DNA of 32,000 nucleotides from Candidatus Saccharimonadota bacterium (GCA_002952755.1 CP025011.1:840001-872000), one strand, 5' to 3'; positions 13,865 through 22,761 are shown, counted from the first letter of the stretch. The notes: generated by a model not told the origin, from the sequence alone. Numbers and translations are program-made.

Positions 13865-14344
13865 CTAGCGATCTTTTCCCACCGTAATCGAAGCCATCTC
13901 GTCAATATGCCAGGACTGTACTGCCGTAAGTGGCAACTTCTGCCCGGAGCGATAGTCGTCAATAGCTTTGAGGATGGTGGGCGCTCGAAGCTTGCCAGCT
14001 TTCCCGAGTGCAACAATTTGCTCATAGGTTAGTGCTTCAATGACGTCATGCTCATCTGAGTGAAAAACAGTATCACTTGGGGTGCTACCAGCAAATATAG
14101 TGAACAATACATTACTGCCAGTAGCAATAACGGTTTGGTATATTCCCACCAGACATTCAAGTGTTATAGCTGCACCAGTTTCTTCTTTGGCTTCACGGGT
14201 TATGCATTCGATGAGGTCTTCGCCGACTTCAAGTGTACCGGCTGGCAGATTGTACAACTCTGCTTTTTCGTGGCGCACTTCTTTAATGAGGACGAAGTTG
14301 TCGCCTTGCGTGAGGATAAGACCGGCGCCAATGAAAAAGGGCAT
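13865..14344 (-). CDS. NUDIX hydrolase
   Basis: Nudix box GTLEVGEDLIECITREAKEETG. ATG 14344 (MPFFIGAG) overlaps the upstream TAA by 1 nt (TAATG) and has GGAG upstream, so I prefer it to the track start at 14371. Confidence 0.85.
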   Translation of the reverse strand: MPFFIGAGLILTQGDNFVLIKEVRHEKAELYNLPAGTLEVGEDLIECITREAKEETGAAITLECLVGIYQTVIATGSNVLFTIFAGSTPSDTVFHSDEHDVIEALTYEQIVALGKAGKLRAPTILKAIDDYRSGQKLPLTAVQSWHIDEMASITVGKDR

Positions 14345-14613
14345 TAGTTTTGTCTCCGTTTCATCCACCATTGTTTCAGATCACCTACAACCAGCGTTGA
14401 AAGCAAGAAGCCCGTCGGCGGCACAAGGGCATCAACAAAAGGCTTGCTGCTGCCAATGGCAAACAAGAATAGTACCACCACAATATAGGTTACAAACATA
14501 ATAACCGACTTACGAACCAGACTACCTTCCCAGGCTTTATCCATTTCGACCCTTTTGTTGCGAGCTTCGAGAGCAGCGATGCGACTCTTAAGTTGTTCGA
14601 GTTCAGATTGCAT
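14344..14613 (-). CDS. Small protein with an N-terminal coiled coil and two hydrophobic spans
   Basis: 89 aa. Reads ELEQLKSRIAALEARNKRVE, then two TM-like segments. No family recognised. Confidence 0.55.
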   Translation of the reverse strand: MQSELEQLKSRIAALEARNKRVEMDKAWEGSLVRKSVIMFVTYIVVVLFLFAIGSSKPFVDALVPPTGFLLSTLVVGDLKQWWMKRRQN

Positions 14614-14749
14614 GGCGTAAGTATACTTTATAACGGCGGCTAATTGCTAATACTGCTAGCAGGCTATCTAGTTTTGGGCCGATCTTTAAACAATCCGGCT
14701 GTTATTTGACTCGTAGTCAAGTAGAAAGATTATGAGAATGGGTGGGGGG

Positions 14750-15277
14750 TTATAAGTTGCAGGCCCGTAATATGTCATCCACTACTTTATCAAGAGGTCG
14801 GCGTACATCAATAATCACTGCGCCGTAATCTCTGTAACGATCCTGAAATGAGTCATGCCAGCCTAGGATGCTCTCAAGTTCATCGGGCGCCTTGCCAAAA
14901 TCATGATCAGTACGGCTGGCGATTCTATGTCGCAGTGTTTGCTTGTCGAGAACAAGACATATCACTGTATCGTACAAATCCAGCATGTCATCGCCATTTT
15001 CAGGTGAGCCGCATAAAAAGATAGGTTTGTTTTTGGCACGTTCGGCAAACTCCTCAGCCTTCTGTCTCGACATTTGCCATTCGTGTTGCTCGTACCATTC
15101 TTTCGTACGGCTATTTTCGTCTTCTGAGCGTTCAATCGGTTTGCCGGTTGCCTTGTCAAACCAGGTTGTAATGCCGTCGTCATCTGTGTCGTGGGCTTCG
15201 TAGCCGCGACGCTGTAATTCTTTACGCACTGTGGACTTGCCAGCTCCTGAGTTGCCGGTGATATAAATGAGAGGCAT
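14750..15277 (-). CDS. P-loop NTPase / small-molecule or nucleotide kinase-like protein
   Basis: MPLIYITGNSGAGKST is a Walker A motif. ATG 15277 has GGAGG 9 nt upstream and overlaps the upstream TAA (TAATG). Confidence 0.75.
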   Translation of the reverse strand: MPLIYITGNSGAGKSTVRKELQRRGYEAHDTDDDGITTWFDKATGKPIERSEDENSRTKEWYEQHEWQMSRQKAEEFAERAKNKPIFLCGSPENGDDMLDLYDTVICLVLDKQTLRHRIASRTDHDFGKAPDELESILGWHDSFQDRYRDYGAVIIDVRRPLDKVVDDILRACNL

Positions 15278-16017
15278 TAAATTACCTCCACCTCGGCCCA
15301 AACTGGCAAATGATCTGAATATTCGGTCTGCAGAATCTCGCTCCGTAGTACATTTACGTCTGTACTAGCAAAGATATAATCCAGCCGCCAGTTGAGTTCT
15401 GTTTCTTCAAAGCCGTTGTACGAGAATGGTTTTGTTGTCCAGGTCTTTTGGCTGAAGTCCGGGCCTGCGTGCTGGAGAAGCTTTTGAACTTTTTGAAGTG
15501 TTGGTGAGTCCGGTGTAACATTAAGATCACCCGTAAAAATGAAGTTGTGCTGCTTGGATTTGAGAATAGCTGCGAGCTTGTCAGCTTCTTGCTCTTTACG
15601 TGGGGTATTCACAAACCTGTCGGTGTAGGACATATGCGTCGTGCCGACGGTAAGCTGGTGCGTATCATCAATTTGCAGTGTCATTTCAATGTAGCTACGG
15701 TATTCGTCGTCAAAGCCGTTCGTGCCTACGGGTTCATTAATGTAGTGGAAACACTTATCTACTATGGGGAATCTGGCGAAGATGGCGTTGGCCTGAAGCC
15801 AAGAACCATCTGGTAAAGGCATACCTTGCCCGTAGTGCCGGTAGCCAAGTGTACGAGCGATATACTCAACAGTATCGGGTTCGTTCTGCTGATAACCATT
15901 GGTAAGCTCTTGCAAGCAAATGATGTCTGCCGGATGTGCTTTTAAGAATGCGGCAATATTACGGATATCTTCTTTGTACCAGATATTCCACTGCAGGATT
16001 GAGATAGTTTGACTCAT
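15277..16017 (-). CDS. Endonuclease/exonuclease/phosphatase (EEP) family protein
   Basis: 246 aa. Shows ILQWNIW...ADIICLQE, GDLN and SDHLPV, which are EEP catalytic motifs. Confidence 0.85.
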   Translation of the reverse strand: MSQTISILQWNIWYKEDIRNIAAFLKAHPADIICLQELTNGYQQNEPDTVEYIARTLGYRHYGQGMPLPDGSWLQANAIFARFPIVDKCFHYINEPVGTNGFDDEYRSYIEMTLQIDDTHQLTVGTTHMSYTDRFVNTPRKEQEADKLAAILKSKQHNFIFTGDLNVTPDSPTLQKVQKLLQHAGPDFSQKTWTTKPFSYNGFEETELNWRLDYIFASTDVNVLRSEILQTEYSDHLPVWAEVEVI

Positions 16018-16580
16018 AGTAAACTCTCCAATTCTTGCTTTGCTTGCTCAAACGATCGGTACTGAACTGCTTTCATTCCAGTCGTAACAGCAGCATCACA
16101 ATTGCTCTTTACATCGTCGATCATGACCGCCTCGTCTGGTTCAACACTCAACTTATCGCAGGTCAGTTTAAATATCTCCGGATCGGGCTTAGCGTAGCCT
16201 GTACTGCCAGAGAGAACTACAACATCAAATAGGTCACTTCTTTCTTGCTCAGTAAAGAACCCCTCCATCATGTCGGCACCGATATTGCTAAGCAGCGCGA
16301 TCTTGTAGCCTTTGCGTAGTTCTTTTACGTAAGCGACCAATTCGTCGTTACGAACATGACCTTGGAAAAAGCGGTCTTCGATTTCTTGGGGAGTCAGCCC
16401 GAGTAATTCGCTCGCCTGCGTGATAAGGCCAGCCTTTGACAGTGTACCGCGTGCAGCTTGCTCGTCTAGATTATGCAAGGCTTCAGCTTTATCTTTTGGT
16501 GAACGCGGGTCGCGCATATAGGCAAAGACCGGATCAACGTAAAAGACTCCGAAGCAATCGAAGACGAGGGCTGTAATCAT
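16014..16580 (-). CDS. HAD superfamily hydrolase
   Basis: 188 aa. Shows LVFDCFGV (motif I region), LLSN, KPDPEIF and IDD. Confidence 0.8.
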   Translation of the reverse strand: MITALVFDCFGVFYVDPVFAYMRDPRSPKDKAEALHNLDEQAARGTLSKAGLITQASELLGLTPQEIEDRFFQGHVRNDELVAYVKELRKGYKIALLSNIGADMMEGFFTEQERSDLFDVVVLSGSTGYAKPDPEIFKLTCDKLSVEPDEAVMIDDVKSNCDAAVTTGMKAVQYRSFEQAKQELESLL

Positions 16581-16891
16581 TTTAATTCTACCTGAATCGT
16601 TTGCACTTCATTAGTGCCAATGTTCTCAACAGCATGGGAGATTTCAGGTGATGATGTAACCTGTCCTTCCTCTAAATCTACGTCCGCTACGGTACCATCT
16701 GGCTTAATAAAACGAAGCCTACCAGAAGAAAGAATGTAATTGATATTTTCGGGGTGCCAATGCATGTTAGCCTTATCACCGGGTCGAACAGTTACCCTCA
16801 GTACGCGCATCTTGTCGTTTTCAAAAATGACTTTGTGAAGATGCGGCGCAATGCTGACTGCATCGTCAGTGTGGTCTGATATATTACTCAC
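16577..16891 (-). CDS. Cupin domain protein
   Basis: 104 aa. Shows HWHPE.. and a second His-containing strand. GTG start within a GTGA overlap. Confidence 0.7.
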   Translation of the reverse strand: MSNISDHTDDAVSIAPHLHKVIFENDKMRVLRVTVRPGDKANMHWHPENINYILSSGRLRFIKPDGTVADVDLEEGQVTSSPEISHAVENIGTNEVQTIQVELK

Positions 16892-17568
16892 TGTTTAATT
16901 TCCTTTTCCCACGACAAAGCCTGCACTTCTTCAATGAGTGCTTTTGCGAGTCCACTATGCGCTTCCTGACTAAAATGAATCCCGTCGTCTCCGGCATGAG
17001 CTACTTGAGCGGTGTCAACGAAGGAACATTCCATGTTGCTTGCCACTCTTTGTAGCTCAACGCTCAGCGCTTGTGACTTTAAGGCTGATTCGTGGTCGTA
17101 GAAGTCTGGCACATAGAATTTAGCAAAGGTTGGTGCTTGATCATCAACCAGGATAGGACTAACCAGTATTATCTTTGCGGGGTTGCCATCACCTTGCGCT
17201 GTTTTGCGTTGGATGATTGCAATAAGCCCCTCGATAGCTTCCGCAATATCCTGAACACTTCGATTAAATTCAGTCTTTAAATCATTTGTTCCAAGCATGA
17301 GGATGACCATGTCGAGTGGCATATGACTATCCAGGCAGGGTTCAAGGTAGGTTTTACCGTTGCGGCCTGGTTCGCGATCGTAGTCCAGATCAGTTGTGCG
17401 GCCGCTGAGTCCTTCTTCGATAACGTAGTAGTCTTCGCCTAAAGCTTGTTGCAATAGCCCTGTCCAACGAACGTTGGCGGGAAAACGGCCAGATTTATCT
17501 GGCTTTTGGCCCCAGGTGTTGGAGTCTCCGTAGCAGAGGATGGTTTTGGGGGTAGGGTTGGTGATCAT
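16888..17568 (-). CDS. SGNH/GDSL hydrolase (esterase/lipase-like)
   Basis: 226 aa. Shows block I ILCYGDSNTWG, block III GTND, and block V DGIHF. Confidence 0.85.
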   Translation of the reverse strand: MITNPTPKTILCYGDSNTWGQKPDKSGRFPANVRWTGLLQQALGEDYYVIEEGLSGRTTDLDYDREPGRNGKTYLEPCLDSHMPLDMVILMLGTNDLKTEFNRSVQDIAEAIEGLIAIIQRKTAQGDGNPAKIILVSPILVDDQAPTFAKFYVPDFYDHESALKSQALSVELQRVASNMECSFVDTAQVAHAGDDGIHFSQEAHSGLAKALIEEVQALSWEKEIKQ

Positions 17569-18026
17569 CTATTTTTCTCCCAGTCTCGCACGACATAAAG
17601 CGCGTTGGTCTCTAGCTCTAATACATGTATATACTCAATATTTTGTGCAAAGGCTTTTTGTAAATCACTGGTTGCGACAATATTATTCTCGTAATAGCTT
17701 TCATCTACTTCGCTTTTTCGAATTGCATATACGATCTTTCGTATACCCGCCCAGTAGGCAGTAGCAAGGCACATAAGGCAGGGTTCCATAGAGGTGTACA
17801 GAACTGCACCCTCGAGATTTCTATGAACCAGTTCAATGGCATTTTCAATTGCATGTACTTCGGCATGGCGAAAGTCATGAGTATCACCACTCATGCCAGA
17901 CACTATTGGTGGCTCGCCAAGATAGCTCGCGGCGACGATTGCGCCGGCAGGAAATCTGCCTTGCTTAGCAGATTCTTTGGAGCGCATTATTGCCATCTTT
18001 AAGTAGTCTGTGTCATCTGATTTCAT
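17565..18026 (-). CDS. Cytidine/deoxycytidylate-type zinc deaminase (nucleoside, nucleotide or base deaminase)
   Basis: 153 aa. Shows HAEVHAI and PCLMC (the H-A-E / PCxxC zinc motifs). Confidence 0.85.
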   Translation of the reverse strand: MKSDDTDYLKMAIMRSKESAKQGRFPAGAIVAASYLGEPPIVSGMSGDTHDFRHAEVHAIENAIELVHRNLEGAVLYTSMEPCLMCLATAYWAGIRKIVYAIRKSEVDESYYENNIVATSDLQKAFAQNIEYIHVLELETNALYVVRDWEKNR

Positions 18027-18586
18027 AACAATTGCTTTTCCTCCATAATTTCGATAAGTTTTGGAAATGCCGAATACTCCTGACTCTGCTCAAGGTTAAA
18101 ATGTCCTTGGTTTGGGAGGACGAGCATCTGCGCTTTGCAATGGTCGGCCACAAACTGCGCTTGCTTAAGCGGTACGTATGGGTCGGTATCGGAATGGACG
18201 AATAAGAGCCTGTCCACGTTTTCTCGAATTGCTTGCCATTCAAATGGGACGTCAAACAAGCTATTGTTTGCCTCCCATTTAAGCGAGTTATCGTGAAAAA
18301 CAGAAACGGCAACAATGCCGCCAATCTTGGCCTTGCTTTCTTGAGCTAGAATGAGCGCAAGAATAGCGCCGCTGGAATGCCCAACAATAAGCGTGTCTTC
18401 GTCAATTGGGAATGGGCAACTTGCATACACATAGTCAGCTTCGGCGCGAAGGGACGGCTGCTCGGGGTGTGGTAGCTGCGGGAGCCAAACAAACAGCCCT
18501 TTGGCCTCTAGTTCACCCTTGAGCCATTGGAACCAGTTGCCGTTAGGCGAACCCATGGTGCCGTGAAGGATGACAGCGTTTTTCAT
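18023..18586 (-). CDS. Alpha/beta serine hydrolase, YdeN/RBBP9-like
   Basis: 187 aa. Shows ILHGTMGSPNGNWFQWL, nucleophile elbow VGHSSGA, D..VP and GHF. Confidence 0.75.
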   Translation of the reverse strand: MKNAVILHGTMGSPNGNWFQWLKGELEAKGLFVWLPQLPHPEQPSLRAEADYVYASCPFPIDEDTLIVGHSSGAILALILAQESKAKIGGIVAVSVFHDNSLKWEANNSLFDVPFEWQAIRENVDRLLFVHSDTDPYVPLKQAQFVADHCKAQMLVLPNQGHFNLEQSQEYSAFPKLIEIMEEKQLL

Positions 18587-19191
18587 GCATTCTCCTTACT
18601 CAAATGCTCGTGCACAATCTGCCAATCACCATTTATCCTTTTTAAGACATTCGTACCTTTACCCTCGTAAACTTGCCGCTTAATATACCGCACTGCTTCT
18701 TCAAGATTCGACTGTAATTCATTGGCAGTATCGACCTTCAGCGTTTGCTCCTTCCATGGAGTGTAGGCTTTACGTCGTTCTTCGACTCTCTCCCAAGTTA
18801 CTTCCGGCAGACCATGCAGGCTCCTGACACGTTCTTCGATACGTTTTTTGTGAAGAGCCGTGTCGCTGGTGGCGCATTCGATAATAATCAAAGTGGCATT
18901 TTGCTTTTTGGCAAGCTCCCGCCAGACACCTTTTGCTTCTTCCTCGGCATTGACGGCATCGATCACGACCGAGCTACCGAGTTTGAATTGCTCAGTAGCC
19001 AGGGATTCGGCAACAAGATAAGCTGCATAGCCTGTTTCGAAGCTCTTTTCTATACCAGATCTAATAATTGCTGACTCGATGGGATCAACAGAAAATAGCG
19101 GCAAACGTAGCTTCTTGGCCACCGCTTCAGCAAGGGTACTTTTGCCGCTGCCGGGCAGGCCAGAGAGGAGGATAAGGTTGTTTTTTGTCAC
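18583..19191 (-). CDS. P-loop kinase (AAA_33-like) with a short NTF2/SnoaL-like C-terminal tail
   Basis: 202 aa. Walker A LSGLPGSGKST. GTG start within a GTGA overlap. The tail VLKRINGDWQIVHEHLS resembles the last strand of SnoaL/DUF4440 proteins. Confidence 0.75.
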   Translation of the reverse strand: MTKNNLILLSGLPGSGKSTLAEAVAKKLRLPLFSVDPIESAIIRSGIEKSFETGYAAYLVAESLATEQFKLGSSVVIDAVNAEEEAKGVWRELAKKQNATLIIIECATSDTALHKKRIEERVRSLHGLPEVTWERVEERRKAYTPWKEQTLKVDTANELQSNLEEAVRYIKRQVYEGKGTNVLKRINGDWQIVHEHLSKENA

Positions 19192-19895
19192 GCCGCGATA
19201 CCCGTCACATTACCTGCCATGTCAGTCTGATATACTCCTTTGGATAAATCTACCAATGTAAGTTTGTTGCCGAACGGATCCTCGACAAGAGCGACTTTAC
19301 CAACCGGAATATCTTCAAGCGGCATTAGTATCTTGCCGCCTGCGCGTTCAAACACAGCGGCCGCATGCTCGGCCGATTCGACTAGAAAATCGGTTTCCGG
19401 GTCAAGTTTGGTACTGAGCACTAACTCGCTCTCGCCTAAGCGCACGGCTGCCATGTCTTCTTTTCTCCAAACAGTTTGCATACCAAGCTGTTCACGGTAA
19501 AAATCTAATCCTTCTTGGATGCTCGGCACTTTTACGAGTATCGCGTCTATTTTCTTGAGCACCGGTACGTCGTCGAGTCGAGTATCGGCTGTTATCTTCT
19601 CGCCAATTGCTATGTGGCGAAGTGCAATATCAACTCCTCGTTCGTGATCAAGCACCACATTTGGCGATTCGGAATGGTTTACATACCGTGCCAGTCCGCC
19701 TTCAAAAAGATAGATCTGTCCATTGATATTATGTGCTGCTAAGTATCGTTCTGATGGCAGTGCTTTTAGTTCTTTAAAACTTATAGGCTTAAAATCAATG
19801 CTTACAACCACTTCGCCCTTTTTAAACTCGCGGGCAGCGTAGATGGCCTTACCATTCATGAGCCCTTGGCCGATGGTTACGTCGGTGGTGTTCAT
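19188..19895 (-). CDS. SET-domain protein fused to a VOC (glyoxalase/bleomycin-resistance fold) domain
   Basis: N-terminal half: AAREFKKGEVV..ARYVNHSESPN..IAIGEKIT (SET motifs). C-terminal half: ILVKVPSIQEGLDFYREQLGM...VALVEDPFGNKLTLVD (VOC). ATG 19895 has GAGGAG upstream and forms an ATGA overlap with the upstream stop. Confidence 0.8.
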   Translation of the reverse strand: MNTTDVTIGQGLMNGKAIYAAREFKKGEVVVSIDFKPISFKELKALPSERYLAAHNINGQIYLFEGGLARYVNHSESPNVVLDHERGVDIALRHIAIGEKITADTRLDDVPVLKKIDAILVKVPSIQEGLDFYREQLGMQTVWRKEDMAAVRLGESELVLSTKLDPETDFLVESAEHAAAVFERAGGKILMPLEDIPVGKVALVEDPFGNKLTLVDLSKGVYQTDMAGNVTGIAA

Positions 19896-20338
19896 TTGGT
19901 CTCCTCTGGTGCTGGTACATCCGTAATCCAAAGCTTACTCTTATCGTCCGGGTTGCCATAGTTATAGTTCACGGTAATTTCTTCGCCGGGCTGAATGGCT
20001 TTAAGCGCGGTAAAAGTGATGGTCTTTTCGGTCAGGTTCTTTTTATAAGTGGCATTTGGTTCGTAGGAGTGATTGTAGAGTGAACCGAACCCCAGGCAGA
20101 TGACCACTGGTTTTTGGCCTTCAGTTTTTTCGCTCTCTTGATCCCAAATGAAGTAATAATTGCGCAGATGTGTCGCTTTGATGTGATCGTAATCTTGGGC
20201 GGCAAGCTCAAGGATGGGACATGTTTCGATTACTTCGCCTTCAGTAATATCCGCAGCAGCAAACATTCCGCGACCCGCGTTTTCAATGCGGGAATCGGCA
20301 AGATAAATTTTGGATGGTGGGGTGATGGGTTCGGTCAT
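19892..20338 (-). CDS. SET-domain protein (putative lysine methyltransferase fold)
   Basis: Shows ENAGRGMFAAADITEGEVI, GSLYNHSYEPN and IQPGEEITVNY. ATG 20338 is preceded by GAGGAGGA. The track's N-terminal extension to 20452 is unlikely. Confidence 0.85.
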   Translation of the reverse strand: MTEPITPPSKIYLADSRIENAGRGMFAAADITEGEVIETCPILELAAQDYDHIKATHLRNYYFIWDQESEKTEGQKPVVICLGFGSLYNHSYEPNATYKKNLTEKTITFTALKAIQPGEEITVNYNYGNPDDKSKLWITDVPAPEETK

Positions 20339-20486
20339 TACAAATCCTCCTCGGCAATAAGCGGCGTTATCTCTACAAATCAAAGCTCTTCTTTTGGCCG
20401 TCAATCCACCCGTAACATAGCGCCTCATCCAGAACACCGGCGTAACTAACAAGGGGAACGCCCGAGGTCTCAGTTTTCATCTTATT

Positions 20487-20495
20487 ATTATAGCA
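20487..20495 (-). promoter_or_regulatory. Candidate extended -10 element (TGCTATAAT) for the SET-led operon
   Basis: The minus strand reads TGCTATAAT about 150 nt upstream of ATG 20338. There is no good -35 element. Confidence 0.3.
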
Positions 20496-20566: not shown

Positions 20567-20881
20567 CTATAAGCGGGCAGGAATCTCAAAAACATCTCTC
20601 ACACCCTCGCTTTTTAGCTTTTCAGGCGTCACTAAGTCTTCCAAAATGATACTCTGTCCCAGTCGCAGCAGTGTCAAGCCATGCGAATATAGGCGCCTAT
20701 CAAGTTTATGACGAAACTCGTCGTCCCAGAAGTCGACACCGAGTGCCGCAACCCATTCGTCTACGTTGAGTCTGATGGCGCCTGTCGACTTCTCCAGTTC
20801 TCTGGCGGCAGTAGATTTACCGGCGCCAGGCAGGCCGCAAAAGGCATAGAGTACTGGCCGTTCATTGGTCTTCAATATCAT
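20567..20881 (-). CDS. P-loop NTPase (AAA_33-like), apparently C-terminally truncated
   Basis: 104 aa from ATG 20881 (GGAG upstream). Walker A FCGLPGAGKST. The protein ends about 25 aa after ..IILED, whereas the two paralogous kinases in this window are 175 and 202 aa. Confidence 0.6.
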   Translation of the reverse strand: MILKTNERPVLYAFCGLPGAGKSTAARELEKSTGAIRLNVDEWVAALGVDFWDDEFRHKLDRRLYSHGLTLLRLGQSIILEDLVTPEKLKSEGVRDVFEIPARL

Positions 20882-21279: not shown

Positions 21280-22761
21280 ATGTTTGCCTTGCAACACATA
21301 CAAAAATCGTATGGCGACAAAATCATACTTTGCGACAGTAACTTCGCAGTTAACGAGGGCGAGGTAATTGCTCTAATCGGCGAAAACGGCGCTGGCAAAT
21401 CGACTCTGCTCCAAATCATTTTGGGCAAAGTTCAACCAGATAGTGGAAGCGTTGCGCTTCACCAGGAAACGATTGGCTATGTGCCACAAAAGACCAATAC
21501 CGATCAAACTATAAAGACGTTTTTTGATGCAGACGTCGACCCGTGGCGTATAGATTACGCGCTTACTATAGTAGGCCTTAGCGGGGTGGTGGATAATTCA
21601 CCTGTCAAAGCACTTAGTGGTGGTCAGAGAACTCGGTTGGCATTAGCAAGTGTACTAGCACAGAACCCTGAGCCCACAGTGCTGTTACTTGATGAACCTA
21701 CCAACAATCTCGACACTGAAGGGCTTGTATGGCTAGCCGAATTTATTCGGTCGTTTCGTGGTGCCATCGTATTAGTATGTCATGACCGTAACTTCATTAA
21801 TCAGGTCGCTACTGGTGTTGCCGAACTACGGAATGGCAAATTGCGTCACTACGGGGGTAATTACGATTTCTACAAAGAACAGCGTGCCATCGAGCATGAA
21901 GCTGAGAGAAGGCGTTACGCTCGCTACCTTACCGAGAAGAAACAACTTGAACAGGCTATCTCAGCCCAGCGAGAAAAAGGCCAACACGCACACAAGCATA
22001 TTAAGCGTAGCGACAACGACAAATATCAGCGGGATTTTTTCCGTAATAGAGTTACTGTTAAACTTGGCCAACAGGCTAGGGCACTCGAGACTCGCCTTGG
22101 CCAGCTTGAGGACGTTGAACGACCTGAGAGCGTTCGTAACTATGGACTAAAACTAAGCGGCACTGCCAATAATGAAAAGTTACTTTTACGCTTGAGCGAT
22201 ATCAATAAGTCTTTCGGCAATAATGTTCTAAGTAATATTAGTCTTGAGATAAGAGGTAGTGAGCACGTACACATAAGCGGTCATAACGGCGCTGGTAAGA
22301 CTACACTACTAAAGATGGCGGCAGGATTACTTGAGCCGGATAGCGGTGAACAGATTTTAGGCAGTGACGTACGGATTGGCTACTTTTCGCAAGACGTAGA
22401 CAGCCTTAGTTATACTCACACTGCACTCGAGAATTTGCAGTCCACCGCTGCGTCACCTACCGACATTTTCCGTGAAGCCAGGAGCCTCGGTTTAGATAGA
22501 CAAACCTTGCAGAAACTTCCAGGGCAACTGTCTCGTGGCCAGCAGGCTAAACTTGGCTTCGCAAAGCTGCTGCTAAATTCTAATCACCTACTCATTTTGG
22601 ACGAGCCGACCAACCACCTGGATATTTCTACACGTGAGCAGATTGAAGCCGCGTTATTGTCCTACCATGGGGCGCTGCTATTTGCTTCACATGACCGTTA
22701 TTTTTCAGACGCAATGCAGCCAACGAAAACACTGCAATTGACTAACGGAAGGTTGCACTAA
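21280..22761 (+). CDS. ABC-F family ATPase (two ABC domains, no TMD; translation factor or ribosome-protection type)
   Basis: 493 aa. First domain: GENGAGKST / LSGGQRTRLALA / LLLDEPTNNLD. Second domain: GHNGAGKTT / LSRGQQAKLGFA / LILDEPTNHLD. A charged linker of about 80 aa joins them (RRRYARYLTEKKQLEQ...). Confidence 0.9.
   Translation: MFALQHIQKSYGDKIILCDSNFAVNEGEVIALIGENGAGKSTLLQIILGKVQPDSGSVALHQETIGYVPQKTNTDQTIKTFFDADVDPWRIDYALTIVGLSGVVDNSPVKALSGGQRTRLALASVLAQNPEPTVLLLDEPTNNLDTEGLVWLAEFIRSFRGAIVLVCHDRNFINQVATGVAELRNGKLRHYGGNYDFYKEQRAIEHEAERRRYARYLTEKKQLEQAISAQREKGQHAHKHIKRSDNDKYQRDFFRNRVTVKLGQQARALETRLGQLEDVERPESVRNYGLKLSGTANNEKLLLRLSDINKSFGNNVLSNISLEIRGSEHVHISGHNGAGKTTLLKMAAGLLEPDSGEQILGSDVRIGYFSQDVDSLSYTHTALENLQSTAASPTDIFREARSLGLDRQTLQKLPGQLSRGQQAKLGFAKLLLNSNHLLILDEPTNHLDISTREQIEAALLSYHGALLFASHDRYFSDAMQPTKTLQLTNGRLH

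Follow-up and report, generated by a model that had tools for sequence, protein, structure and literature searches.

Nine consecutive start/stop overlaps join ten small-enzyme genes in a soil Saccharimonadales genome

Operons of unrelated genes compacted by deletion are an already described kind. In "The Life-Cycle of Operons," Price, Arkin, and Alm (2006, PMC1480536) report that an operon is made by deletion of the DNA between neighbors that are often unrelated. In their model, neutral deletion gives rise to canonical overlaps, selection against longer overlaps preserves them, and protein ends change along the way (PMC1480536). Overlapping genes have also been studied from the side of translation: in part of the work of Huber et al. 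(2023, PMC10666635), overlap-coupled gene pairs are described as often encoding the subunits of heteromeric complexes. Here, we analyze an array of twelve genes on the minus strand of a 32-kb window, that is, the whole stretch of DNA under study (CP025011.1:840001-872000). The organism is a soil Candidatus Saccharimonadales bacterium, a member of TM7 and of the Candidate Phyla Radiation (CPR). The data from the array fit the deletion model.

We conclude that the array is probably a lineage-specific toolbox polycistron of ten, possibly twelve, stand-alone cytoplasmic enzymes, shaped by deletion. The mix appears to comprise nucleotide- and metabolite-salvage, house-cleaning, and small-molecule-detoxifying types, whose substrates we infer. 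An original prediction, made from the sequence, had taken the tight coupling of these genes as an argument for co-translation and stoichiometric co-expression. The array is exceptional in its own genome, its exact gene set is confined to one strain, related bacteria carry similar arrays with other members, and relics of deleted genes lie inside and beside it.

Layout of the array, its relatives, and its relics

The array is read on the minus strand from position 20338 down to 13865. The gene order is SET1, SET-VOC, P-loop kinase A, serine hydrolase, zinc deaminase, SGNH esterase, cupin, HAD-superfamily protein, EEP, P-loop kinase B, an 89-residue protein, and NUDIX hydrolase. Six junctions are ATGA (19892, 18583, 18023, 17565, 16577, and 16014), two are GTGA (19188 and 16888), and one is TAATG (15277), in which the last A of the EEP stop codon TAA is the first A of the kinase B ATG. 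Ten genes, SET1 to kinase B, are linked by these nine consecutive −4 or −1 junctions. The sole gap follows, 136 bp long (14614-14749), between kinase B and the gene for the 89-residue protein. A second TAATG, at 14344, combines the stop of the latter gene and the start of NUDIX. The gene boundaries are identical in independent gene calls on three public assemblies. The NUDIX open reading frame (ORF) contains a further in-frame ATG at 14371, upstream of the TAATG start; we prefer the TAATG start because four orthologues of 157–159 residues align from Met10 and two independent gene calls give 159 residues. A translationally coupled polycistron consists of same-strand genes with −4 or −1 overlaps, the arrangement found at nine junctions in a row. 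SET1 to kinase B probably form one translation-coupled unit, as judged from these junctions.

The genome is a single contig of 1,450,269 bp, 98% complete, to which one simple, uniform gene caller was applied throughout. Across the whole genome, 116 of the 902 same-strand neighbor pairs (12.9%) have a −4 or −1 junction. The longest run of such junctions is nine, at genome positions 854749-860452, and the runner-up is three. When junction classes were shuffled 20,000 times, no shuffle reached a run of nine, and the maximum was six. Thus, the compaction is a genuine outlier in this genome, and the array is the genome's strongest translational-coupling signature.

Conservation was assessed in 22 other species of the genus and in one genome from each of 60 other genera in the family. 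The queries were a concatenate of the twelve products for the 60 genera and three part-concatenates for the 22 congeners. SecA and GyrB are 83–88% identical across the genus, and therefore the congeners are close enough for comparison. The 60 other genera yielded scattered single homologues and no array. The congeners carry zero to five orthologues per array gene, at about 42–75% identity. None of the 22 has an orthologue of SET1, the deaminase, the cupin, or EEP; no congener genome holds more than two array orthologues, and they are never adjacent as in the array. Around the best orthologues (twelve loci), the neighbors differ from those in the array. Only contigs 100% identical to the window carry the exact array; they come from three sequencing runs or assemblies and represent the same strain. 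A conserved pathway operon is recognized by genes that co-occur and are adjacent across related genomes, a pattern not seen here.

Similar arrays with other members exist in relatives. The longest, which exceeds the array in the window, belongs to a Saccharimonadales metagenome-assembled genome whose SecA is 77% identical to the one here (G100, DASYZQ01). It comprises 15 same-strand genes (L024:25-9589) with junctions of −4, −1, 0, +1, and +5. The order is a gene of unknown type, EEP (62% identical), Cof-type HAD, SnoaL, ApbA-like reductase, S66 LD-carboxypeptidase, Ser_hydrolase, CutA1, S51, alpha/beta hydrolase, S51, S51, MazG, SET-VOC (70% identical), and APH. EEP, SET-VOC, Ser_hydrolase, HAD-superfamily, and SnoaL families are common to this array and the one in the window. 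An 11-gene array in another relative (G001, L016:2848-9868) includes an aldehyde dehydrogenase, an MBL-fold protein, 2H phosphoesterase, Ser_hydrolase (64% identical), cupin, S51, alpha/beta hydrolase, NUDIX, RibD_C, and SnoaL. The S51 peptidase and an alpha/beta hydrolase of ~224 residues, with a weak Tle3-like match, adjoin in both of these arrays, a small conserved micro-synteny. Two soil Saccharimonadales metagenome-assembled genomes (MAGs) have shorter arrays: PCC, NUDIX, NUDIX, and SET-VOC in G004 (DATEJI01), and AAA_33 kinase, SET-VOC, and deaminase in G020 (DATIIL01). In G005, the SGNH gene (75% identical) is ATGA-joined to a CPT-like kinase gene, followed by Tag and MazG, and EEP in G100 is ATGA-joined to Cof-type HAD. 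The same gene is overlap-joined to different partners in different genomes.

These comparisons bear on the claim that tight coupling implies a functional module with stoichiometric co-expression. The claim is not supported: the set occurs in only one strain, its homologues are dispersed, and they have other ATGA partners. The original prediction had itself proposed synteny as a check, with co-occurrence in this genome alone to be taken as accidental compaction. That is the outcome in the 22 congeners and 60 genera searched, and it counts against a conserved module. Since the exact set is confined to one strain, the pathway or module reading fails by the prediction's own criterion. What survives of its argument for co-translation and stoichiometric co-expression is the coupled unit down to kinase B, which the overlap junctions favor; a module that needs stoichiometry is not supported, the set being unconserved.

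Relics of other genes are present inside the array and adjacent to it. In kinase A, the last ~25 residues, searched alone, match positions 97-117 of the 121 in the SnoaL_3 profile (E 9e-5; 23.2 bits versus the Pfam cutoff of 22). The 177-residue kinase A orthologue in G004, 61% identical, is 25 residues shorter and lacks this tail. Therefore, a SnoaL-type gene has been mostly deleted and its tail fused onto the kinase; the relic occupies ~18583-18670. The SGNH esterase likewise has an 11-residue C-terminal extension that encodes the Shine–Dalgarno (SD) motif and GTG start of the cupin gene, and this extension is missing from the 215–216-residue orthologues of G005 and G011. Upstream of the array lies a truncated P-loop kinase gene (20567..20881, minus strand), which covers only positions 2-75 of the 143 in the Pfam AAA_33 profile. 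Along the N-terminal 75 residues, it shares 48% identity with a 191-residue homologue in G019.

Between that gene and SET1 is a relic ORF of 35 codons (20376..20480, minus strand), identified by tblastn as an internal fragment of a 199-residue gene family. It is 58% identical over 31 residues (E 1e-9) to residues ~45-75 of a paralogue encoded at genome 217435-218034. A Pfam search with the fragment returned no match; it may resemble the YdeI/OmdA family. The full-length 199-residue relative belongs to a second minus-strand cluster of small-enzyme genes in the same genome (G000:C1:212283-218885), outside the window. That cluster also contains paralogues of the serine hydrolase (213639-214184) and the deaminase (215180-215680), and, judged by eye from the sequences alone, NUDIX, HD, Ham1-like, and toxin–antitoxin-like genes.

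We propose the following route to the present array. Genes would have been gathered by gain and rearrangement in a species-specific accessory region. Deletions would then have stripped out intergenic DNA and whole intervening genes, squeezing the remainder together. Each deletion could extend the upstream frame to a TGA or TAA that overlaps the next start, giving the canonical −4 and −1 junctions. With internal promoters lost, expression would proceed from one upstream promoter, for which TGCTATAAT at 20495-20487 is the candidate. Ribosomes would go from gene to gene by termination–reinitiation, aided by SD motifs within the 3' ends of upstream genes, and the membrane-protein and NUDIX pair past the 136-bp gap may use a promoter of its own. 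A strong deletion bias combined with a scarcity of promoters in this 1.45-Mb epibiont genome is a plausible cause of such extreme compaction.

Encoded proteins, expression signals, and genomic setting

SET1 (19892..20338, minus strand, as are all genes of the array) is the first gene, has a strong SD motif, AGGAGG, and encodes a SET-domain protein of 148 residues (Pfam SET, E 1e-17) with NHSYEPN and GEEITVNY motifs. The protein belongs to a family of ~140 residues widespread in Patescibacteria (best identity 69%), and its close homologues in public metagenomes occur in contexts unrelated to the array. SET-VOC (19188..19895; 235 residues) is a fusion that matches Pfam SET and Glyoxalase, and the tyrosine motif GE-x-I-x-x-[ND]-Y, present in SET1, is missing from its SET half. 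The Protein Data Bank (PDB) relatives of the array proteins are generic overall, with SET7/vSET for the SET domain. Kinase A (18583..19191; 202 residues) is an AAA_33 P-loop kinase (E 4e-14) that ends in the SnoaL-like relic. The serine hydrolase (18023..18586; 187 residues; Pfam Ser_hydrolase) is of the RBBP9/YdeN type, with a GHSSG motif and PDB matches to RBBP9 (E 1e-16) and YdeN (E 2e-14). The zinc deaminase (17565..18026; 153 residues; Pfam dCMP_cyt_deam_1), which has the CDA fold and HAE and PCLMC motifs, best matches Bacillus subtilis guanine deaminase (E 1e-10) and TadA in the PDB.

The SGNH esterase (16888..17568; 226 residues; GDSL/SGNH in Pfam) has GDS, GTND, and DGIH blocks and matches the Mycobacterium smegmatis aryl esterase 2q0q in the PDB (E 2e-39). 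A single-domain cupin follows (16577..16891; 104 residues; Pfam Cupin_2); it matches the cupin domain of oxalate decarboxylase (E 3e-8) and has a 47%-identical paralogue at genome 461160-461495. The HAD-superfamily protein (16014..16580; 188 residues; Pfam HAD_2) has an atypical motif I. Specifically, FDCFG retains the Asp nucleophile and carries Phe at D+2 in place of the second Asp of DxD, and the 59%-identical orthologue of G006 keeps the DCFG variant. The protein is probably not a canonical phosphatase, and phosphatase activity appears doubtful. EEP (15277..16017; 246 residues) is an EEP-fold nuclease or phosphatase (Pfam Exo_endo_phos, E 8e-29) with its catalytic motifs present. Kinase B (14750..15277, with its ATG at 15277) is an AAA_18 P-loop kinase with a Walker A motif and 175 residues in the gene calls. 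A PDB sequence search with EEP and kinase B found no match for either.

Past the gap, the 89-residue protein (14344..14613) has a coiled-coil N-terminus and hydrophobic segments, matches no Pfam family, and has homologues at 45–61% identity scattered in the family. The NUDIX hydrolase (13865..14344; 159 residues from the TAATG start; 47 bits versus a Pfam cutoff of 21) has a complete Nudix box, GTLEVGEDLIECITREAKEETG, at residue 45, which agrees with the consensus GX5EX7REUXEEXGU. It matches 2b0v (E 4e-16) and NudJ (E 6e-11) in the PDB and has orthologues at 59–69% identity in 4 congeners.

Several features suggest that the array genes are functional and native, as they look from their sequences. 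SET1, both kinases, the serine hydrolase, the deaminase, the SGNH esterase, EEP, and NUDIX retain intact catalytic or binding motifs, and orthologues at 50–75% identity keep full length. The codon usage of the genes resembles that of the genome as a whole (z −0.3 to +1.3). SD-like matches of 4 nucleotides or more accompany 10 of the 12 array starts, versus 51% of starts genome-wide as given by crude start calls. The original prediction thus fared well in its anatomy. All of its junctions (ATGA at six, GTGA at two, TAATG at two, and the 136-bp gap) agree with the minus-strand reading. Every domain it named is recovered by Pfam, with caveats for HAD motif I and the SET half of SET-VOC, and domains, motifs, and independent gene calls confirm that the genes are real and intact. 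It had also recognized no known pathway that uses this combination, which is upheld. None of the array proteins reaches the cutoff of a curated NCBIfam equivalog model, resistance and pathway families included.

Upstream of SET1, a perfect extended −10 sequence, TGCTATAAT (20487..20495, minus strand), is a candidate promoter read from the sequence. A consensus promoter scan, which demands a −35 box, did not list it. It ends 6 nucleotides ahead of the ATG of the 35-codon relic ORF; the array mRNA may therefore begin with a leaderless short ORF. The leader upstream of SET1 contains no attenuator-like structure or terminator (fold z +1.29). Within the array, promoter-like matches number 15 (shuffle expectation 11.3 ± 3.1) and terminator-like matches 13 (9.3 ± 3.4), neither count exceeding what shuffling predicts, and downstream of NUDIX the fold score is z −0.28, with no clear terminator. 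The 136-bp gap contains a perfect palindrome, TTGACTACGAGTCAA (TTGACT-ACG-AGTCAA; 14706-14720), and a TATACT box (14620-14625) located 6 nucleotides before the ATG of the 89-residue protein's gene, at whose start no SD motif was seen. These elements may serve the membrane-protein and NUDIX pair as an operator with an internal promoter or, alternatively, as a leaderless start. Given the palindrome, the TATACT box, and the SD-less ATG, the last two genes may form a separate unit.

The window is an accessory-looking, species-specific region rich in resistance-type genes. Its contents include LOG, DUF998, two TetR regulators, APS kinase and sulfotransferase, two methyltransferases, APH, a TAP-type hydrolase, MerR-SDR, ABC-F, flavin monooxygenase, a PhnB-like VOC protein, AraC, an M20 peptidase, and an ABC-2 exporter. 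The ABC-F gene is divergent (window 21280-22761) and scores 423.8 bits, versus a cutoff of 380, in the NCBIfam model for ribosomal protection-like ABC-F. Eleven left-flank genes have almost no orthologues among the 22 congeners, and in this respect, shared with the array itself, the region has the lineage-restricted presence of a flexible genomic island. It has no signs of mobility or foreign composition: the window contains neither a tRNA nor an integrase or transposase domain. Among 20-kb bins of the genome, GC is lowest (0.462) at 860-880 kb; GC of the array genes is slightly low (z −0.3 to −2.2), and their codon usage is native-like.

Other element classes were considered and rejected. An integron or mobile element is set aside: in the window there is neither a repeat family at the junctions nor a tRNA nor an integrase domain. 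Regarding an anti-phage defense system, PADLOC recognized no system and returned nothing beyond local matches to P-loop or zinc motifs. Acquired resistance genes were sought with curated NCBIfam models, and no array protein scores above cutoff; only the flanking ABC-F passes, and that in a generic model. Rfam structured RNAs have no match in the window.

SET-VOC extends beyond the Saccharimonadales. Its orthologues, at 56–70% identity, occur in 6 Saccharimonadales-type small genomes and in 2 Actinomycetota MAGs of ~9 Mb. The actinomycete copies (L029:8001-8687 of CAWKKG01 and L031:8001-8696 of CAVYEZ01) are 62–66% identical to the copy in the window. They have a GC content of 0.52 (0.56 at third codon positions) within loci of 0.69 GC. 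The pair falls among Saccharimonadales sequences in a tree that is unrooted and poorly resolved. This pattern suggests a recent import of SET-VOC into actinomycetes from a donor of ~50% GC, possibly a Saccharibacteria epibiont. The copy in CAVYEZ01 adjoins ORFs that, by eye from their translations, are transposase-like.

Weighing the explanations

The original prediction offered two functional readings, and each accounts for part of the set. The hypothesis in one is that the array is a coherent salvage and pool-cleaning module for nucleotides and nucleic acids, in which EEP, HAD, the deaminase, the two kinases, and NUDIX would process host-derived nucleotides for a bacterium unable to make them. 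CPR bacteria rely on salvage. The relevant families are present and their motifs intact, the arrays of relatives abound in NUDIX, MazG, Tag glycosylase, 2H phosphoesterase, and P-loop kinases, and the second cluster (212–219 kb) sets serine-hydrolase and deaminase paralogues among nucleotide-type enzymes. Nevertheless, we consider such a module unlikely: half of the genes do not fit it (the two SET proteins, VOC, the SGNH aryl-esterase homologue, the cupin, and the RBBP9-type hydrolase), no array protein attains an NCBIfam equivalog cutoff, the D+2 general acid typical of phosphatases is missing from the HAD protein, and neither set nor order is conserved. Equally doubtful, in our view, is a co-regulated array of xenobiotic- or antibiotic-modifying enzymes that, within a larger resistance island, would guard the epibiont from the metabolites of its actinobacterial host. 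Drug modification is not typical of NUDIX, the deaminase, EEP, or SET, the curated resistance families have no match at cutoff among the array proteins, the array has no regulator, leader, or attenuator (the leader fold score being +1.29), and here too the set is not conserved. The surroundings do lend themselves to this idea. The ABC-F (423.8 versus 380) exemplifies the resistance-type genes of the window, and the flanks hold APH, two methyltransferases, sulfotransferase with APS kinase, a TetR–flavin monooxygenase pair, the PhnB-like VOC protein, MerR-SDR, and the ABC-2 exporter. The array itself supplies VOC, SGNH, the cupin, and kinases of CPT-like or AAA_33 type, the G100 array ends in APH, and SET-VOC is common to Actinomycetota. 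The set as a whole is covered by neither reading.

Two further explanations place the array at opposite extremes of function, and we regard both as very improbable. A dedicated, undescribed pathway, biosynthetic or catabolic, with steps that need stoichiometric co-expression would explain why ten genes are so extremely coupled, as nowhere else in the genome, and why catalytic motifs are intact. Synteny largely refutes it, given that the exact set is in one strain only and the orthologues are dispersed and joined to other partners; the array moreover lacks a transporter, regulator, or scaffold enzyme, and deletion relics lie inside the unit. The idea of a gene graveyard, functionless and decaying toward deletion, is in keeping with a species-specific region and with relics of at least three genes in or beside the array. 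Twelve intact ORFs with their catalytic motifs, codon usage at or above the genome average, the preserved SD motifs, and full-length orthologues at 50–75% identity all speak against it.

The lineage-specific toolbox polycistron shaped by deletion is the explanation we favor, with moderate confidence, and several observations weigh against it. Certain families recur together: Ser_hydrolase with SnoaL in three arrays, SET-VOC beside NUDIX or MazG in three genomes, and AAA_33 kinase, SET-VOC, and deaminase in both G020 and the genome studied here. Such recurrent pairings could reflect functional links. The genomes of relatives were examined as pieces of ~20 kb, and a single transcript for the array is predicted from its anatomy. 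Finally, Price, Arkin, and Alm found canonical spacing to be rarer in new operons than in old ones (PMC1480536). In contrast to those new operons, this young-looking array is canonical throughout, an uncommon state that may indicate that coupling is under active selection.

Wider meaning and comparison with described systems

The array supplies a warning that tight gene coupling in reduced genomes need not reveal function, there being no conserved association here. It is a clear, relic-documented case of operon formation by deletion in a CPR bacterium, and related soil Saccharibacteria bear equally compact arrays with different members. There is a modest chance that this style of array is a general, undescribed feature of soil Saccharibacteria. 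If so, it would bear on how ultra-small epibionts carry and express changeable salvage and detoxifying enzymes with very few promoters. We speculate further, and tentatively, that soil Saccharimonadales keep long, promoter-sharing toolbox operons that are continually redrawn from ~20 small-enzyme families common to the family and, in part, to the host. The pool might comprise Ser-hydrolase, SnoaL, S51, NUDIX/MazG, SET-VOC, EEP, HAD, P-loop and APH kinases, cupin, and deaminase. Insertion of new genes could take place at start/stop overlaps with no integron-like machinery, and genes could move between epibionts and their Actinomycetota hosts. The low-GC SET-VOC inside actinomycete genomes of 69% GC suggests such movement and offers a tangible starting point for tracing gene exchange between Saccharibacteria and the bacteria presumed to host them.

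Among described systems, house-cleaning sets (NUDIX/MutT, NudJ, MazG, HAD nucleotidases, and ITPase) resemble the array in its NudJ-like NUDIX with a complete box and in the MazG and NUDIX genes of the relatives' arrays. Only part of the array fits, however, and it displays no specific orthology to a characterized house-cleaning enzyme. Integron cassette arrays are likewise variable, promoter-sharing strings of unrelated small genes whose membership differs between relatives. Unlike them, the array has no attC-like repeats, for which 4-nucleotide overlaps leave no room, no integrase among the proteins of the window, and no tRNA.

The junctions are of the same ATGA and TAATG types, with an SD motif inside the upstream gene, as those treated in parts of the work on termination–reinitiation coupling (Huber et al. 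2019, PMC6728339; 2023, PMC10666635). The coupled pairs of the 2023 work, often subunits of heteromeric complexes, differ from the array, whose products are enzymes of monomer type that are unrelated to one another and give no indication of forming a complex, and coupling here is predicted from sequence. The closest likeness in kind is to the operons of Price, Arkin, and Alm (PMC1480536). As there, unrelated neighbors share one unit, overlaps would come from deleted spacers and stop codons, protein ends are altered (here, the SGNH extension and the SnoaL tail of kinase A), and the unit is absent from fairly close relatives. The array departs from them in its nine consecutive canonical junctions, with up to 14 tight junctions in a relative, and in its setting, a 1.45-Mb CPR genome rather than that of Escherichia coli or B. 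subtilis.

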